64,000 nt of DNA, taken from contig JBAYZO010000006.1 of NCBI GenBank assembly GCA_041672465.1, positions 1,938 through 65,937 on the forward strand, in the 5' to 3' direction. How positions within the stretch are numbered: the stretch's first letter is position 1; every line of letters begins with the position of its first letter. Below the pieces are notes generated by a model, which saw only the letters and a program-made list of their open reading frames with translations, was not told where the DNA came from and did not search any database. The DNA comes from Eubacteriales bacterium. Lineage in GTDB: Bacteria > Bacillota > Clostridia > Oscillospirales > CAG-382. Shown here piece by piece: positions 7,058 to 63,582 of this stretch. The position numbers were made by a program, and so were the translations under genes.

Positions 7058-9340
7058 ATGACTGAGCTTAAAAAGTTCCCGCCGTCGGTAGTGGCGTTCT
7101 TTGGGGAAAAAGGCATTCCCAAGGACGAATGTATCATAACCATGGAAAGCGACATGGGTGGGGACGGCGTTTATAAAAACGTTTACATACTCCTGACAAA
7201 AGAAAAAATAGCGGTTGCTGAAGGGTTTATCACTTTTGAGGGTAAAGCGAAGCAGGACAAAAGGATCGAATACTTCAACTGCAACCGTTTTGAGGAAATC
7301 CCCATAGAAAAGTGTGAAAGCTTTTCTGTGGAGTTGTTTATTTCCGGCGGCAGAGCAGTTTGCGAAACAAGCGGGAAGACAAAAGAAGTTTTCAGATTTA
7401 CCTCGTCTTTTAAGCACGACGCCAATGTGCTCTGCAACGCCGCGAATCAGCTTAAAAAAGACGGCAAAGTAGACGAGGAAAAGCTAAAGGGCGAGAGCGA
7501 GGAATCAAGGTTTTGCCCCACCTGCCACCGCCGCTACCCCGACCCGGACCGCAAGATTTGCCCGAAATGTATGGAAAAAGCAAAGCTTGTAAAACGGCTC
7601 TCGGTGCTGTTTTTAAAGTACAAATACTATATATTTCTTATTTTTATCGCTTTCGGGCTTGTGGCGAGCCTTGGGATTGTCGCCCCCTATGTGTCAAACG
7701 ACGTGTTTTACAACAAGGTTTTGGCAAAGGGCGGCTCCATGTACGGGAAAATAGGCACCGTTGTGCTTATGATAATAGGAGTGCGGCTGTTGTCGCTTGT
7801 CATTTCGGTAATCAACGGCATTTTGAACGCGAAAATTTCCGCCGAAGTCGTATATGACCTTAAAAAAACCATTTTCAACACTATCGGCGGGCTTTCGCTG
7901 CGGTTTTTTACCAACCGTCAGACCGGCGGACTTATGACGCAAATCAACTCGGACGCCACCACGATATACTGGTTTTTCTGCGACGGTTTCCCTTATCTTG
8001 TGACAAACATACTTCAGCTCCTCGCGGTGCTGGTTGTCATGCTGACCATGGACCCGCTGCTGACGCTTTACACTTTTATAACAATTCCCATTTTTGTTGT
8101 CGCCTTTAAACTCACCTTTACCATGTTCAGCAAGCTCCACGCGCGTTCTTATTCAAAACGCCGGTCGTTTAACTCGTTAATCTCGGACGTGCTCAACGGG
8201 ATGAGGGTGGTCAAGTCCTTCTCAAGGGAAGAGGCCGAAATAAAAAGGTTTCAGGACCGCTCGCAGGCTCAGGCGGACGCGCAAACCACAATAGGAGTCA
8301 CCGCCAATAAAATATTCCGTATGCTGGGCTTTTTAATGAAGATAGGCATTTATGTCGTCTGGGGCGTGGGGGGCTGGCAGGTTATGAAGCACACCGGCAG
8401 CCTTAACTACGGCAAGCTTATGACTTTTATCGCCTATGTGGGGATGATCTACGACCCGCTTGACTTTTTCGCCGACGTCTCAAACTGGTGGTCGGAATGT
8501 CTTAACGCCCTCCAGCGGCTGTTTGAGATAAGCGACTCCATACCCGAGGTAAAAGAGGCGGAAAACCCGGTGGTGTTTGACAAAATACTCGGCAAAGTGG
8601 AATTCAAAGACGTTACTTTTTCCTATGAGGAAAACAGAACCGTCATTGACAACATATCTTTTTCAATCCCCGCCGGCGATACCCTTGGCATCGTGGGCAA
8701 AACGGGGGCGGGAAAGTCAACGCTCGCCAATCTTCTCACCCGGCTGTACGACCCGAATATGGGCGAGATATTTATCGACGACGTTAACCTTAAAAACCTT
8801 TCGTTTGACTCGCTCCGCCGCGCCGTTGCCATTGTGTCTCAGGAAACTTATTTGTTCAGGGGAACGCTGATGGAAAACATTCGCTACGCGCGCCCCGACG
8901 CCACAAATGAGGAGGTTATCGCCGCCTCAAAAATCGCCTCCGCCCACCAGTTTATAATCAAATACCCCGACGCCTACGAAACCATGGTCGGCTTTGGGTA
9001 TAAGGAACTCTCCGGGGGCGAAAAGCAAAGGGTGTCTATCGCCCGCGCGGTTTTAAAAAACCCGAGCATTCTTGTGCTTGACGAGGCGACCGCCGCCATG
9101 GATACCCAGACCGAAAGGCAGATTCAAACGGCGCTTGACAACCTGACCAAAAACCGCACCACCATAATTATCGCGCACAGGCTTTCAACCCTCCGCGACG
9201 CCGACAGCCTTATTGTCCTTGAGGACGGCAAAGTGCCGGAAAAGGGCTCGGCTACCGAACTGCTTAAGAAAAAGGGCAAATACTTTGAGCTATATAAAAT
9301 GCAGGCGCAGGCGCTAAAGACTATTGGAATTGAGGAATGA
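7058..9340 (+). CDS. ABC exporter half-transporter (TMD+NBD) with N-terminal cytoplasmic domain and C4 zinc ribbon
   Basis: 760 aa. A roughly 150-aa soluble N-domain is followed by CPTC-x11-CPKC (residues 153-171). Six TM-type ABC exporter membrane regions follow. The NBD has GKTGAGKST, LSGGEKQR, LVLDEATAAMD and AHRL. Confidence 0.9.
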   Translation: MTELKKFPPSVVAFFGEKGIPKDECIITMESDMGGDGVYKNVYILLTKEKIAVAEGFITFEGKAKQDKRIEYFNCNRFEEIPIEKCESFSVELFISGGRAVCETSGKTKEVFRFTSSFKHDANVLCNAANQLKKDGKVDEEKLKGESEESRFCPTCHRRYPDPDRKICPKCMEKAKLVKRLSVLFLKYKYYIFLIFIAFGLVASLGIVAPYVSNDVFYNKVLAKGGSMYGKIGTVVLMIIGVRLLSLVISVINGILNAKISAEVVYDLKKTIFNTIGGLSLRFFTNRQTGGLMTQINSDATTIYWFFCDGFPYLVTNILQLLAVLVVMLTMDPLLTLYTFITIPIFVVAFKLTFTMFSKLHARSYSKRRSFNSLISDVLNGMRVVKSFSREEAEIKRFQDRSQAQADAQTTIGVTANKIFRMLGFLMKIGIYVVWGVGGWQVMKHTGSLNYGKLMTFIAYVGMIYDPLDFFADVSNWWSECLNALQRLFEISDSIPEVKEAENPVVFDKILGKVEFKDVTFSYEENRTVIDNISFSIPAGDTLGIVGKTGAGKSTLANLLTRLYDPNMGEIFIDDVNLKNLSFDSLRRAVAIVSQETYLFRGTLMENIRYARPDATNEEVIAASKIASAHQFIIKYPDAYETMVGFGYKELSGGEKQRVSIARAVLKNPSILVLDEATAAMDTQTERQIQTALDNLTKNRTTIIIAHRLSTLRDADSLIVLEDGKVPEKGSATELLKKKGKYFELYKMQAQALKTIGIEE

Positions 9341-9350
9341 TTTTTTACGA

Positions 9351-9417
9351 GCAACTTTTTGTCTTTGCAGTTTAATAAACTGCAATTTCGCTAAAGCGAA
9401 ACCGACAAAAACATTGC
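9351..9417 (+). repeat. Nested-hairpin repeat element (same family as 62680-62879, opposite genomic strand)
   Basis: Outer stem GCAACTTTTTGTC/GACAAAAACATTGC encloses hairpins TTGCAGTTTAATAAACTGCAA and TTTCGCTAAAGCGAAA. Both inner hairpins are near-identical to the reverse complement of the 62.7-62.9 kb units. Confidence 0.8.
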
Positions 9418-9495
9418 GGTTCTCTAAATAAATAAGTACTAAGCGTAACCACAAAAAGCTTGTATACCGATAGAAAGAAAGGACTGGTTATAAAA

Positions 9496-10080
9496 ATGCC
9501 GGAAAATTCAATTAATGCTAAAAACGATTATTTGGAAATAATTGAAATAATATACCTCTCCCCCGAAAACGCCGAGTTTTATGAGACCGAAAACGGTTTT
9601 CCCTGCGTCAAGGCCTTTATTCCTCCTGTCAAGAAAGACGACCTTGAGGAAGAAGCCTCCAAAGACCCCGTATGGCAGGACTTGGGGCGGGCGTTTTTCC
9701 ACCGCGCTTTTCCCTTTGACGACGCCGAAAACTTTATTTCCGTCACCGACAAGGACGGCAACGAGTACGGAGTCATAAAAAGCCTTGACCTGTTTGACGG
9801 GGCGGGGAGAGATATTATTGAAAAAGAGCTTAAGCGAAAATATTTTACCCCTGTTATCACAAAAATACTGTCTTTAAAAGAGCGGTTCGGCTATTCCTAC
9901 TGGGAAGCCGACACCAATCACGGCAGAATGTCGTTCGCCATGCACGACACTTACAGGAATATCGCCAAGGTTTCTGAAAGCCGGCTAATTTTAACCGATG
10001 TTGACGGAAACAGATTTGAGATCCCTGACGTCTTCGGGCTTGACAGAAAAAGCTTTAGAAAAATAGAGCTTTATTTGTAA
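9496..10080 (+). CDS. DUF1854 domain-containing protein
   Basis: About 194 aa from ATG 9496 (the track ORF starts at TTG 9460). The pattern RAFPF, ISV.D.DG.E, FTPVI and D.DGNRFEIPD...LD..S matches my recollection of PF08909. That family typically sits beside ABC exporter genes. Confidence 0.7.
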   Translation: MPENSINAKNDYLEIIEIIYLSPENAEFYETENGFPCVKAFIPPVKKDDLEEEASKDPVWQDLGRAFFHRAFPFDDAENFISVTDKDGNEYGVIKSLDLFDGAGRDIIEKELKRKYFTPVITKILSLKERFGYSYWEADTNHGRMSFAMHDTYRNIAKVSESRLILTDVDGNRFEIPDVFGLDRKSFRKIELYL

Positions 10081-10127: not shown

Positions 10128-12368
10128 ATGCCTCCCAAACTAAAAACAAACCGCCATCTGTACGACGGCGTTTTGGAGCGGGTGAAGGCCTCTTTTGACG
10201 CCGAACCGCAGTTTACCTTCAGGTACAACTTGTCAAGAGACAACATATATATCGTCGGCGCGGGCGGGGTGGGGAAAAATACCCTTCACTTGTGCGGCGA
10301 TAAAAAGAATGAAACGGGAAAAACAGAAATAATAACGCTTTCCATCGCAGATATGGACGATATCGAGTATATTCAGTATGTCGGCTGCGCCGCCATTGAG
10401 TACACCTCCGGCGGGGTGAGAAAAGAGCTTTGCCGAAGCGATATGAAAAACGCCGTCGCCCTTCAAAACACCGTTAAGCGGCTGAAAGCCGTCCGCGACG
10501 GCAGGGTTATAGGCGCTATCGACGAAAACGAGGACTTCACAAGCTGCCCGAACTGCGGCACGCCCTACCGCGCCGGGTCAAAGACCTGCGCCGTCTGCGC
10601 CAACCGTAAAAAGCTGTTTATGCGGGTGATTCCGTTCGCGAAGGACTACAAGTGGCCGATCGCTCTGTCGCTGGTTTTGTTTTTCGCAGTCACGGCAATT
10701 AATATTTACGCTCCTTATATAAGCAAGGAGCTTATCGACGGGTATCTAAGCGTTAAGGACGGACTGCCGGGCCCGGACAGCGGGTTTTTCAAGCTTATTG
10801 CCGCCATGGTGGGGGTGGCGTTTTTGCTGACCCTCCTCCCCATGCTGAGGCAGATAATTCTTGTTAAGGTCGGCAACAAAATTTCGGTCAACCTAAAAGA
10901 GGCAGTTTACCGCAAGGTTCAGGAAATGTCGCTGGCAGGTATCAGCAAAAGGACGGCGGGGGAAATTATCACCCGGATAACACAGGACACCGACGTCATG
11001 AGAGACTTTTTGGTGGCTGTGCTCCCCGACGTTTTGCGAATCGGGCTGACGTTTATCGGGGTAAGCCTTGTGATGTTCTTTATGAGCTGGCAGCTCACGC
11101 TTCTCGTACTCCTCCCCATTCCCTTTATAATGATAATGTTTTATTTCCTGCGGACCTTTATGCACTCGATTTTTGTAAGGCAGTGGCATTCGGAATCGGC
11201 GGTGAACTCGCTGCTCCACGACGTGTTTTCGGGGATACGCGTGGTAAAAGTCTTCGGCACCGAAAAATACGAATCCGTGCGGTTTGACAAAGCCGCCAAA
11301 AAGGTCGCGGATATATCTAAAAAGAACGAAAAGACTTGGAACACAATAATGCCTTTCGCTTTCTTTCTGCTTGGAATCGGCGAGTACGCCGTGCTGTTTT
11401 TCGTGGGGGGAAAAATTATCGACGGCGCTATGACGCTGGGTCAGCTCACTTTGTTTATGAGCTATGTCTATATGATTTACGGCCCGGTAAGACAGGCCGC
11501 TTTCTTGCCGAGGCAGTTCGCCAGAGCCATGACGTCTATGTCAAAGGTGTTCGAGCTCCTTGACGAGCAGCCCGAAGTCGCCGATATAGAAATACCGGTC
11601 GAAAGGGATATCATAGGCGACATTCATTTTGAGAACGTCCGATTTGGGTATAATAACTATGAGGACGTGCTTAAAAACATCACCGTCGGCATTAACAAAG
11701 GTGACATGGTGGGGCTTGTCGGGCGAAGCGGCGTGGGGAAATCCACCCTTATTAACCTTGTCATGCGCCTTTACGACGTGACGGGCGGGGGAATAAAAAT
11801 TGACGGCACCGATATCCGCGAATACGAACAGCACTGCCTTAGGTCGCAAATCGGCGTGGTTTTGCAGGAGACATATCTCTTCCGGGGGACGATATACTCA
11901 AACATCGCCTACGCCCTGCCGGGCTGCACAAAAGAGGACGTTATAAAAGCCTCCAAGCTCGCCAACGCGCACCAGTTTATAATGAAGCTCCCCGACGCCT
12001 ACAACACCCTTGTGGGGGAAAGAGGGCAGACGCTCTCGGGCGGAGAAAAGCAAAGAGTGGCAATCGCCCGCGCCGTGCTCCGCAACCCGAGAATACTTAT
12101 TCTTGACGAGGCGACGGCGTCGCTTGACACCATCACCGAAAAGCTTATCCAAGACGCCCTTAACCAGCTTACCTCCGGGAGGACGACTATCGCCATCGCT
12201 CACAGGCTCGCCACCCTCCGCAACGCCACAAAGCTTATAGTGCTTGAAAGGGGCGAGATAGAGGAAGTCGGCACCCATGACGAGCTTTTAGCGAACGGCA
12301 AGAGGTATTACAAGCTTGTAATGGCGCAGAGACAAATGTCGCGGATGTTAAAGACAAAAAAGCGGTGA
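10128..12368 (+). CDS. ABC exporter half-transporter (TMD+NBD) with N-terminal cytoplasmic domain and C4 zinc ribbon
   Basis: The N-domain is followed by CPNC-x10-CAVC, then the TMD. The NBD has GRSGVGKST, LSGGEKQR, LILDEATASLD and AHRL. The start is ATG 10128 or TTG 10107. Confidence 0.9.
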   Translation: MPPKLKTNRHLYDGVLERVKASFDAEPQFTFRYNLSRDNIYIVGAGGVGKNTLHLCGDKKNETGKTEIITLSIADMDDIEYIQYVGCAAIEYTSGGVRKELCRSDMKNAVALQNTVKRLKAVRDGRVIGAIDENEDFTSCPNCGTPYRAGSKTCAVCANRKKLFMRVIPFAKDYKWPIALSLVLFFAVTAINIYAPYISKELIDGYLSVKDGLPGPDSGFFKLIAAMVGVAFLLTLLPMLRQIILVKVGNKISVNLKEAVYRKVQEMSLAGISKRTAGEIITRITQDTDVMRDFLVAVLPDVLRIGLTFIGVSLVMFFMSWQLTLLVLLPIPFIMIMFYFLRTFMHSIFVRQWHSESAVNSLLHDVFSGIRVVKVFGTEKYESVRFDKAAKKVADISKKNEKTWNTIMPFAFFLLGIGEYAVLFFVGGKIIDGAMTLGQLTLFMSYVYMIYGPVRQAAFLPRQFARAMTSMSKVFELLDEQPEVADIEIPVERDIIGDIHFENVRFGYNNYEDVLKNITVGINKGDMVGLVGRSGVGKSTLINLVMRLYDVTGGGIKIDGTDIREYEQHCLRSQIGVVLQETYLFRGTIYSNIAYALPGCTKEDVIKASKLANAHQFIMKLPDAYNTLVGERGQTLSGGEKQRVAIARAVLRNPRILILDEATASLDTITEKLIQDALNQLTSGRTTIAIAHRLATLRNATKLIVLERGEIEEVGTHDELLANGKRYYKLVMAQRQMSRMLKTKKR

Positions 12369-61738: not shown

Positions 61739-62494
61739 TTATTTTGTCAGCCAGTCAAGCGCGGGTTGGATCTCATCGTCCCAATACTCCCAAGTATGCG
61801 AGCCGGGGGATTCTTTATAGGCGACTTCAAAACCCTTTTCGGTAAGGAATTTTTTAAGGTTTCTGTTGCAATCGATAAGCCCGTCCTCGGTTCCGCAGAC
61901 AAGGTAAAATTTGGGCTTTTTCCCCCCGCGACTAAGCAGTTTTTCGGCGGCGTACTCGACAGTGTGGGCTTCGCGATCGCGCGGGGGGCCGAAAATTGAG
62001 TTCCAATAAGGAGTGTCGGGGCGCTTATCAACGTTAAAAGAACCCGAGAGCGAAACCGCTTTAGAAAAAGTATCGCTTTCCCACAGCGCGGCCTTGACGC
62101 TGCCGTAACCCCCCATGGAAAGCCCGGCTATCCAGTTGTCCTCCCGCTTTGGGGACATTTTGGGGAAGAAATCACGGCAAATTCCCGGGAGTTCCTTTGA
62201 CACAAAGGTAAAATATTTTAAATACCCGCACTCCATGTCTGTGTACCAGCCCAAGTTTGTGGCCGGCATTACGACGGCGATGCCTTTATACGCGGCGTAG
62301 CGCTCAATCGAGGTCCTCCGCTGCCAGATGGTGTGATCGTCGCTCATGCCGTGGAGGAGGTACAGCGTGGGATAGGTTGCGGAGGAAGTTGTCTCCAGCC
62401 CTATCTGCCCGGTAGTCGACTGGGGTATAATCACGTCCATATTCACACACATTCCCAGTACGTTTGAAAAAAAGTTAACATGCATCAGCGCCAT
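61739..62494 (-). CDS. Esterase-family alpha/beta hydrolase (esterase D / tributyrin esterase-like)
   Basis: YLLHGMSDDH and nucleophile elbow GLSMGGYG, plus a C-terminal His region. An AAGGAG SD lies upstream. Confidence 0.8.
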   Translation of the reverse strand: MALMHVNFFSNVLGMCVNMDVIIPQSTTGQIGLETTSSATYPTLYLLHGMSDDHTIWQRRTSIERYAAYKGIAVVMPATNLGWYTDMECGYLKYFTFVSKELPGICRDFFPKMSPKREDNWIAGLSMGGYGSVKAALWESDTFSKAVSLSGSFNVDKRPDTPYWNSIFGPPRDREAHTVEYAAEKLLSRGGKKPKFYLVCGTEDGLIDCNRNLKKFLTEKGFEVAYKESPGSHTWEYWDDEIQPALDWLTK

Positions 62495-62535
62495 TTTTCT
62501 TCTCCTTGTTATATGAAAATTTATCCTGTAACCTT

Positions 62536-62879
62536 TGTAAAATTGAGTAACTTCAAGTTTTTAACGCTTTCGCTGTAACTGTTTAATTCAGCAATTCACC
62601 CTTTAAGCTTTATAAAATTGGGTAATGCAAGTTTTTGATGCTTTCGCTGTAATAAATTAACAAATTGTCTTTCAATTGTTGTAAAATCAAAGAATGCAAG
62701 TTTTTGACGGTTTCGCTTTAGCGAAATTGCAGTTGTTTAAACTGCAAAATCAAAAACTTGCCGGCTTAACTGACAATTCACCCTTTAAGCTTTATAAAAT
62801 TTGGTAATGCAAGTTTTTGATGCTTTCGCTTTAGCGAAATTGCAGTTGTTTAAACTGCAAAATCAAAAACTTGCCAGCC
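62536..62879. repeat. Array of four related repeat units; the last two are complete nested-hairpin elements
   Basis: Core TKTAAAAT-N7/8-(C/G)AAGTTTTTRAYGSTTTCGCT occurs four times. 62592-62649 and 62774-62832 differ by one base. 62711-62762 equals 62825-62876 (52 nt). Confidence 0.85.
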
Positions 62880-63582
62880 CAATTGAAACTTCCCCGCTGT
62901 CAAGCGCCATTATTCCCTCCGGGGTTTTAACAATTAGGCGGAATTTTTTATCTATATCAAGAACCCTGCCCGAAAAATTAATCCCACCGCGGACAAAGGA
63001 TACATCCCTCCCCGTAAGGCAGGATTTTTTTCTGTATTCGTCCACGCGGTCGGGGTGCCTTAGAAAGTCAAGGTCAAAATCAAGTTTTTCCGCGAGGCGG
63101 GAGGCAAGCCTTTGCCTTTCCGCCGGAACCACCCCCGCTTTATTTTTAAGCGTATCCGGCAGATTTACGCCGGGGAGGTTTACCCCCACCCCCACGATAA
63201 AACCGTCATACCCGGGCGATTTCCCCGCCGCAACACGCTCGGCAAGTATGCCGCAGACTTTTTTATTTCCGTGAAAAATATCGTTAACCCATTTTACCCG
63301 GAGTTCCAGCCCCGAAACCTCTTCTATCGCCGACAGCGCGGCAAGCGCCGCCACGGGGGTGACAAGCGTAAAATCGCCGGGTTTTATGTCCTCAAAACAG
63401 TAATAGGCGGAAAAATAAACCCCGCCGTCAGAAGAATAAAAACTTTTGCCCTGTCTTCCTCTCCCCGCCGTTTGGGTTCTCGCAAGCACCGCCGTGCCGT
63501 GCTTTGCCCCCTCCCTCGCCAAGGACTTTAAATAATTGTTTGTCGAATCGACGGTGTCTATATTTATAATATTAAAGGCCAA
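62863..63582 (-). CDS. birA: Biotin--[acetyl-CoA-carboxylase] ligase (group I, no DNA-binding domain)
   Basis: DSTNNYLK and GRGRQGKSF motifs, VKWVNDI, and a C-terminal SH3-like domain. The last codons lie in the repeat. Confidence 0.88.
   Translation of the reverse strand: MAFNIINIDTVDSTNNYLKSLAREGAKHGTAVLARTQTAGRGRQGKSFYSSDGGVYFSAYYCFEDIKPGDFTLVTPVAALAALSAIEEVSGLELRVKWVNDIFHGNKKVCGILAERVAAGKSPGYDGFIVGVGVNLPGVNLPDTLKNKAGVVPAERQRLASRLAEKLDFDLDFLRHPDRVDEYRKKSCLTGRDVSFVRGGINFSGRVLDIDKKFRLIVKTPEGIMALDSGEVSIGLASF

Follow-up and report, generated by a model that had tools for sequence, protein, structure and literature searches.

The window, i.e. the whole stretch of 64,000 nucleotides that was analyzed, contains a birA-like gene and an esterase gene, which are separated by an array of repeated units (Table 1). 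Both genes had been named in an earlier note on this DNA, and their identity was supported by Pfam matches to BPL_LplA_LipB and Esterase. The note had also described a structured repeat of four units between them, and a repeat search of the window recovered the units, their stems and the enclosed hairpins. Four copies of a 60-nt unit start at positions 62518, 62592, 62661, and 62774, and two 113-nt units (62655-62767 and 62768-62880) are 81% identical. The spacings of 74 and 113 had been given correctly, while the middle value is 69 instead of 70. Perfect 12-13-bp A/T-rich outer stems (62696-62707 with 62750-62761, and 62809-62821 with 62862-62874) enclose two hairpins, and the unit core (C/G)AAGTTTTTRAYGSTTTCGCT is found at 62554, 62628, 62697, and 62810. 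As the unit heads are TGTAAAAT in units 1 and 3 and TATAAAAT in units 2 and 4, their consensus is TRTAAAAT and not TKTAAAAT, as the note had it. The structure itself had been described properly, but on the plus strand, whereas the gene-sense strand is the minus strand here. Because both genes lie on the minus strand, the order in sense direction is birA, two full units, two half units, the AAGGAG site and the esterase gene.

Two of the four units of the array are full and two are half units, and the core of the repeat is a three-way junction of 65 nt (J). The G+C content of the array is 31%, compared to 50% for the window. A covariance model of the unit matched both full array units with E ~1e-16, far above chance. 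Both strands of the array fold (z-scores of -4.4 to -5.2), and the minimum-free-energy fold of unit 4 is the three-way junction on both strands. Units 2 and 4 as well as units 3 and 4 are nearly identical (for half unit 2 and unit 4 97% over 60 nt), indicating a recent local duplication. A 52-nt identity that had been reported between units exists, but it lies one base away from the coordinates given at that time (62711-62762 equals 62824-62875). Likewise, a near-identity of 57 bp has a single difference across 62592-62648 versus 62774-62830, but the following base differs as well. The units of the window represent a diverged subtype, which has an outer stem without a bulge and a degenerate version (AAAGGGTGA) of a module termed R in its tail. 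The tail of unit 4 was called a degenerate R by comparison with the compact elements of other species, in which J is followed by GAAAGG..ATG. A second copy in the window has an ABC transporter gene on one side, whose stop codon is at 9340, and a DUF1854-type gene on the other, which starts with the ATG at 9496; on its sense strand the copy is followed by a degenerate half unit and the string GAAAGGACTGGTTATAAAAATG.

Table 1. Features of the birA-esterase region and the second copy in the window.
Feature	Position	Strand	Remarks
birA-like biotin-protein ligase gene	62863..63582	-	sense-upstream of the array; Pfam PF03099, E 1.9e-15
Last five birA codons (GLASF) and TGA stop	62863..62880	-	outer-stem arm of unit 4 and end of half palindrome
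Whole array	62518..62880	-	gene-sense order: full unit 4, full unit 3, half unit 2, half unit 1
J of unit 4	62809..62874	-	13-bp outer stem and hairpins TTTCGC/GCGAAA and TTGCAGTT/AACTGCAA; covariance-model match 62791-62876
Tail of unit 4	62763..62808	-	sense ...ATTACCAAATTTTATAAAGCTTAAAGGGTGAATTG..., with Shine-Dalgarno-like AAAGGGTGA as degenerate R module; read from sequence
J of unit 3	62696..62761	-	inverted repeat; covariance-model match 62679-62763; predicted fold
Half unit 2	62592..62651	-	sense 3' half of J (AGCGAAA + GC + ATCAAAAACTTGC) and tail; lacks the two hairpins
Half unit 1	62518..62577	-	most diverged; 63% identity to reference copy
Native esterase ribosome-binding region	62495..62517	-	AAGGAG at plus-strand 62502-62507; outside the repeat
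Esterase gene	61739..62494	-	downstream of the array; Pfam PF00756, E 8.8e-22
Second window copy	9349..9435	+	covariance-model match (contig 11286-11372), E 1.1e-18; sense strand is plus

The genome that contains the window is a 1.85-Mb MAG of 97 contigs, which is 97.5% complete. A BLAST search of this genome with one unit yielded 62 matches. Iterated nhmmer searches yielded 63 matches, 49 of which contain the full J, at about 45 intergenic loci, and a half-unit profile detected 82 copies in 47 gaps. Four contigs (C30, C38, C42, and C49) begin or end within arrays, and therefore the true copy number is higher. The earlier note had proposed this comparison of the unit with the whole genome, and had stated that the array would be a local artifact if no further copies, expression or covariation existed; the search gave 49 full copies, and J covaries (see below). 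The array belongs to a dispersed family of modular, non-coding repeats, of which it is one insertion that was amplified locally. Because the same element is present at about 45 unrelated loci, it is not a control site that is specific for the birA-esterase locus. The family is apparently undescribed, and it is of the same kind as known small intergenic repeats of bacteria.

On the sense strand, the modules are arranged in the order H, J, tail, tandem units of "half J + tail", and often R. H is an AT-rich palindrome of 20-22 bp (ATTGAAAGATAAATCTTTCAAT), which is at times repeated along with the 5' part of J. J is followed by the tail GGTTCTCTGAATTTACAAAGTCGATA, the tandem half units (~49 nt each) number from 0 to 6 per locus in this genome, and R is a strong, gene-proximal Shine-Dalgarno string, GAAAGGAATGGTCATAAAAATG. 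Some full elements have H at both ends, and 22 of the 64 H palindromes of the genome lie away from any J. Owing to R, many downstream proteins seem to start with MVIKM, and R is enriched behind the element (7/36 genes versus 30/1570, Fisher p = 1e-5). This value stems from a cleaner test based on regular expressions, whereas an earlier version with refined start codons was underpowered.

Further arrangements of these modules were observed. A near-identical 21-mer, AAAGGAATGGT(C/T)ATAAAAATG, precedes about 37 unrelated gene starts, e.g. at 9475-9498 of the window, and makes an in-frame upstream ATG (MVIKM...). Though enriched behind the element, it occurs alone too, and it adjoins J in other families of Clostridia. 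A second repeat family, tandem or dispersed and with a period of 117 nt, was found outside the window at C24:16160-16520, C13:26400-26510, C13:27740-27960, and C50:596-700. It has a G+C-rich hairpin core (...GTTTGTTTCGGTCGCGTCCTTCGCGATTCGCGTCATTCTGCC...), H at one end and CTGCAAAAGGAATGGT, the Shine-Dalgarno string of the R module, at its terminus, which suggests that different cores may share the end modules H and R. At C46:4850-4950 a tandem 21-nt unit (GGATTGAAAGTTTATCTTTC) consists of repeated H half-palindromes.

The conservation of the fold was analyzed with an alignment of 45 distinct J copies from the genome, which has 27 base pairs. Pairing is realized in 97.6% of its cells, and both partners have changed at 12 of the pairs. 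Not one of 500 column shuffles attained any of the main measures, and slid partners were about 45% paired. In a cross-species alignment, which was fitted to the model, 94.5% are paired and nine pairs are changed on both sides. The covariance analysis that had been suggested earlier was thus performed, and J was found to covary in its own genome as well as among foreign copies, showing that the fold is kept by selection. The bases around the junction are invariant (GG, TTTCG/CGAAA, TTGC/GCAA, and a T5/A5 tract), and the distal stems and loops vary and covary. Wobble pairs were considered as an indicator of the strand of action and discarded: the counts of G-U versus A-C (21 versus 10) lean toward the strand antisense to the genes and are not significant. 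A pairing of an anti-Shine-Dalgarno sequence within J was also dismissed, as it is not conserved among copies. In one compact form (L113), the 9-nt linker GGTTCGGCG together with the end of an outer-stem arm can pair with GCCGAAACCGC of J, and the predicted minimum-energy RNA fold is this pairing of the 3' half of J and the linker, not the three-way junction. This alternative pairing might act as a switch or be accidental.

The element fills the space that separates the stop codon of a gene from the start codon of the following one, or it lies in a 5' UTR. According to crude gene calls (simple longest open reading frames), all 26 copies between co-directional genes of the own genome lie in the same direction as the genes. 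A further 10 copies lie between divergent and five between convergent genes, and none is antisense to both neighbors. The rule holds for 8/8 copies in the congeners G007 and G008 and for 12/12 copies in other families and metagenomes. Replication was rejected as the source of this orientation, because the polarity tracks the genes instead: the sense strand is on the leading strand, as defined by GC skew, in 15 of 19 informative cases (15:4), which is near the 75% of genes in general, and copy C12:27766 follows genes on the lagging strand. In three divergent gaps the best sigma-70-like site (10-11/12 matches) is just 5' of H-J on the sense strand, and for C39 and C40 such a site upstream of the element was also recognized by eye. 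The position of these putative promoters would place the element in the 5' UTR in divergent gaps. A consensus scan of the array in the window revealed no promoter-like site on either strand and no convincing terminator. A promoter inside the unit was rejected, since a consensus scan and inspection by eye (sigma-70, ECF-like GAAAC-N14-CGTAT, sigma-54) yielded no consistent site. As the element always has the same polarity as its neighbors, it is likely to be co-transcribed with them. The earlier proposal that the array forms a three-way-junction RNA within the birA-esterase transcript would be compatible with this arrangement.

The genes downstream of the element are unrelated, being housekeeping genes in the own genome, and include those for WhiA, Ffh, Pgk, RpiB, MotA, a pyridoxal-kinase-type protein, MazG, and HprK, as well as a nucleoside phosphorylase and an integrase. 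A riboswitch or cis-regulatory leader was rejected, because the downstream genes are unrelated, their orthologs in sister species lack the element, and there is no Rfam match; permissive scans of the array and two foreign variants against Rfam 15 gave only noise. A ribozyme was dismissed as well, since no hammerhead-type core was seen by eye and Rfam gave no match.

The history of the birA-esterase locus was reconstructed by comparison with congeners. In 10/10 congeners whose site is readable, the esterase gene is directly preceded by a PAP2-family gene, from which about 15 nt of spacer separate it, and the order is birA-PAP2-esterase in the four congeners in which birA is detectable, with the coding regions of birA and PAP2 overlapping by ATGA. 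In the genome under study a tblastn search found no PAP2 gene at the locus or in the whole assembly, and the 368-nt birA-esterase spacer stands in its place. The AAGGAGAA...ATG context precedes the esterase orthologs in all congeners. The C-terminus of BirA is ...GEVSIGLASF* here, compared to ...GEVSV plus three residues in the congeners, where the repeat is wholly missing at birA. The array has therefore replaced the PAP2 gene and has rewritten the end of birA. Neither change is mentioned in the earlier note, nor is the membership of the units in a larger modular element made up of palindrome, junction, tail or half units, and ribosome-binding string. Where birA meets the array, birA and H share the short sequence TTTC(A), and a microhomology-mediated deletion at this match could have fused the 3' end of birA with a copy of the element that preceded the esterase gene, which would have removed PAP2; we infer such a deletion as the origin of the array. 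In a Logan contig of SRR31904133 (L060, ~780-922), the upstream flank of the C50:6184 locus is joined to the esterase-proximal part of the array via the shared J. This join is probably an assembly chimera across the repeat, the alternative being a real recombinant between copies.

The distribution of the element is patchy. The covariance model (R1) found 49 copies in the own genome and five and 11 weaker copies in two congeners, while nine further congeners had no match, nor did the 25 genomes scanned from 14 other genera of the family. With strict filters, four other families of the order yielded single copies. The observation is thus one burst of about 50 copies in one species versus single copies in several families of Clostridia. 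An exact-pattern scan of 185,579 species genomes returned four contigs. An origin from a phage or plasmid was discarded, as there was no match in phage, plasmid, or IMG/VR collections.

A scan of metagenomes revealed three groups of matches. The first consists of the source of the MAG itself and sister samples, with 99.9-100% identity. The second stems from unrelated species that have a compact form, in which a stop codon is followed by the 22-bp H, J, 9 nt, R, and the next gene; in five other species R lies about 9 nt after J. The genes downstream of the compact form encode a xylose-isomerase-like TIM barrel, a phosphodiester glycosidase, HPr kinase, DUF4320, DUF3788, a flavoprotein, a pyrimidine-nucleoside phosphorylase, and a HEPN protein. 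The third group is a J variant from gut Clostridia, which has a conserved position immediately upstream of a gene for a tyrosine recombinase (Phage_integrase) in several samples, and possibly this variant is a vehicle for the horizontal spread of the element. The integrase-linked variant was seen to be preceded by two hairpins in gut and other metagenomes (L087, L089, L091, L094, L100, L125, L110, and L078/L051).

Three sites were found that are filled in a congener and empty in the own genome, i.e. G008 (L036) versus C30:13669-13689, G007 (L033) versus C5:29434-29458, and G008 (L040) versus the C51 site, and one site is filled in both (G007 L037 and C16:5894). The empty orthologous sites are plain spacers of 20-25 nt, and the insertions directly follow the stop codon or directly precede the start codon. 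Judged from these orthologous gaps, the element has been gained or lost between species. No clear target-site duplication was seen in the three filled/empty pairs, whose flanks have strongly diverged; the relatives are 45-87% identical at the protein level, and therefore the empty sites are not alignable base by base. As neither target-site duplications nor defined ends are apparent, the argument for mobility is drawn only from presence and absence in species with 60-87% protein identity. Spacer and array are identical in five independent assemblies of this species. Strain-level polymorphism was looked for and not found, since all collected assemblies of the species are identical at the locus, and consequently no ongoing movement was seen.

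From these results we infer that the element is a selfish, non-autonomous mobile or recombining cassette. Probably, it is a co-transcribed intercistronic cassette similar to BOX and MIRU, which is tolerated in one orientation only and which has J as the cis-structure for its propagation. Such a cassette would survive in operons because only one of its orientations would be "expression-neutral": near its 5' side, stop codons would end the upstream frame quickly, and the ribosome-binding string on its 3' side would serve the downstream gene. J with its invariant junction bases would be the part that is recognized by the propagating machinery, as folded DNA or as RNA, and slippage, or unequal recombination involving internal direct repeats, might produce the tandem half units. 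Not all results fit easily. The RAYT/IS200-type transposase that the earlier note had suggested to look for did not turn up: RAYT/Y1 HUH transposases (PF01797) had no match in the own genome, while control genomes did match. TnpB and reverse transcriptase (RVT_1) genes were missing from the carriers, and the only congeners with a reverse transcriptase were non-carriers. IS elements are frequently missing from MAGs. Furthermore, an RNA that is useful for the host could equally account for the invariant stem bases and for the conservation across distant hosts, the wobble lean toward the antisense strand, although not significant, does not suit a structure that acts purely at the mRNA level, and the predicted minimum-energy RNA fold of the compact form is not the junction.

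A more far-reaching version, which is offered only tentatively, is that H-J-R is a new, horizontally traveling, gene-less "stop-to-start" cassette. It would enter in one polarity, bring its own stop codons and ribosome-binding site, and have its J recognized by a folded-strand recombinase or an RNA-level process. H and R would be shared with at least one other repeat family, so that cores could be swapped by recombination.

It is rather unlikely that J, together with H and R, is an RNA insulator or stabilizer that benefits the host and has been recruited to adjust operon expression. The folded J might block the 3'-to-5' decay of the upstream cistron and the 5'-to-3' decay of the downstream cistron by RNase J, or J might instead be a processing site, with R securing downstream translation. 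The strict sense polarity, the intercistronic or 5' UTR position with promoters upstream, the compensatory changes that maintain the fold and the attached strong Shine-Dalgarno string would all be expected from such a function, and REP, BOX, ERIC, and Correia elements are known to act on mRNA stability, cleavage or expression (PMC3049150). However, unrelated housekeeping genes carry the element in one species while their orthologs in sister species do not, and the element is missing from nine congeners as well as from the 14 other genera of the family that were scanned. In addition, the trend of G-U versus A-C pairs does not favor the sense strand, and a pure stabilizer does not need conservation of the stem sequence.

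Still less probable is that J is a folded single-strand DNA site for recombination or transposition by a trans-acting HUH enzyme or tyrosine recombinase, with polarity resulting from strand-specific recognition. The recombinase would be encoded elsewhere, e.g. on an integrative element, comparable to REP/RAYT, IS200/IS605 ends, integron attC, and CTX-phage attP. Invariant bases around the junction with covarying distal stems, the slight excess of G-T wobbles on the strand antisense to the genes (21 versus 10) and a patchy distribution suggesting horizontal spread are in line with such a site, as is the conserved variant immediately upstream of the tyrosine-recombinase gene in several samples of gut Clostridia. 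Yet this link to an integrase is one context among many unrelated ones, neither Y1/RAYT nor TnpB genes were found, and no target-site signature was detected. Moreover, the orientation follows the genes and not the replication strand, whereas known single-strand transposition systems follow replication.

The units are very unlikely to be independent small-RNA genes or arrays of binding sites for a DNA-binding regulator of the birA-esterase region: they are tandem and structured, and both strands fold well, but the array has no promoter-like site or convincing terminator, Rfam gave no match, the element is present at about 45 unrelated loci, and the congeners' birA is entirely devoid of it. A stand-alone small RNA gene was rejected for the missing promoter-like site on either strand. 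That the array is a purely local duplication artifact without a wider family, as the near-identity of units 2/4 and 3/4 alone might suggest, has a negligible probability in view of the 49 full copies in the genome and the homologs in other species and families.

To our knowledge, the spread of most small interspersed repeats, e.g. BOX, MIRU, and ERIC, is still unexplained, and they are among the least understood parts of bacterial genomes. The present family has clean properties, i.e. a covarying three-way junction, an absolute transcription polarity and a built-in ribosome-binding string, which make the questions of recognition and of the single orientation testable with simple reporters and binding assays. 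Such elements break MAG assemblies, and several contigs of the own genome end in them. They rewrite gene ends, as seen for birA, and can accompany gene loss, as seen for PAP2. For synthetic operons in Firmicutes, they could also be used as natural insulators.

Taken as a cassette of the proposed kind, the element can be compared with several known systems. A CRISPR array was excluded, because the units are spaced irregularly (74/69/113) and the "spacers" are repeats in their turn. In integrons a folded, imperfectly paired attC site follows each co-directional gene in one orientation and is recognized as one folded strand. The likeness to attC is an analogy only: the present copies are dispersed among housekeeping genes outside of an integron integrase context, and the ends of the outer stem, as read from the sequence, do not fit the consensus RYYYAAC/GTTRRRY. 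The original work on Chunjie, a MITE from Geobacter uraniireducens, is reportedly that of Chen et al. 2008, as cited in later literature. Chunjie is also small and non-autonomous, sits in an operon without breaking it and has many partial copies (PMC10969869). It differs in having clear terminal inverted repeats and direct repeats, which were not clearly seen for the present element. H, an inverted repeat itself, bounds many full elements on both sides, but many copies including the array lack one or both. A search for Y1, TnpB, and RVT_1 genes revealed no parent IS or transposase with matching ends in the carriers.

The suggestion in the earlier note that the array is similar to REP/BIME or MITEs was right as to the kind of element, as the family is dispersed, is present or absent in congeners and covaries, but it is not strictly REP/BIME. 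Extragenic structured palindromes, mosaics, transcription with the neighbors and compensatory changes are shared with REP/BIME elements and their RAYTs (PMC2817692). However, strict membership was rejected, because the own genome has no RAYT/Y1 gene, the palindromes have no GTAG-type head and the array copies share one orientation instead of alternating. Furthermore, the fold is a junction and not a simple hairpin, and the copy number is lower.

Two systems are closer. Supply et al. 1997 are said to have found that MIRUs have one orientation relative to transcription. The present family also lies in operon gaps in one orientation (26:0, and 20/20 in other genomes). MIRUs occupy about 40-50 loci per genome as tandem units of 40-100 bp in operon gaps, are co-transcribed, have ends that overlap the flanking stop and start codons, and show filled and empty sites between species (PMC3184786). 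The number of loci, the overlap with stop and start codons and the filled and empty sites are likewise seen here. MIRUs carry small open frames that are thought to couple translation, whereas none run through the present array: no minus-strand open reading frame of at least 40 aa exists in 62495-62862, and the unit lengths (113, 74, 69, ~49, and 110-112 nt) are mostly not multiples of three. The element supplies the birA stop codon and often a Shine-Dalgarno/ATG context, without open frames of the MIRU type. MIRUs also differ in being G+C-rich, in having no three-way junction and in belonging to a different phylum.

The BOX elements of Streptococcus pneumoniae and S. suis (boxA - boxB(n) - boxC) share the small, non-coding, AT-rich build, the predicted tight folding upon transcription, the lack of an own transposase, the ability to modify gene ends and the lineage-specific occurrence in tens to hundreds of copies (PMC3049150). 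Both have end modules and a variable number of tandem internal modules, here H - J - (tail + half J)n - R with n = 0-6, and thus end modules, variable internal modules and lineage-specific dispersal were all found for the present family. The likeness is one of build in the sense of "works like"; no sequence relation was found in comparisons that left out BOX itself. The repeats of pneumococci exceed the expected number between convergent genes and fall short of it within operons (PMC3049150), and the present family is the opposite, being strictly polar and mainly located between co-directional genes. It is further distinguished from BOX by its core, a three-way junction with invariant junction bases, and by the ribosome-binding string.
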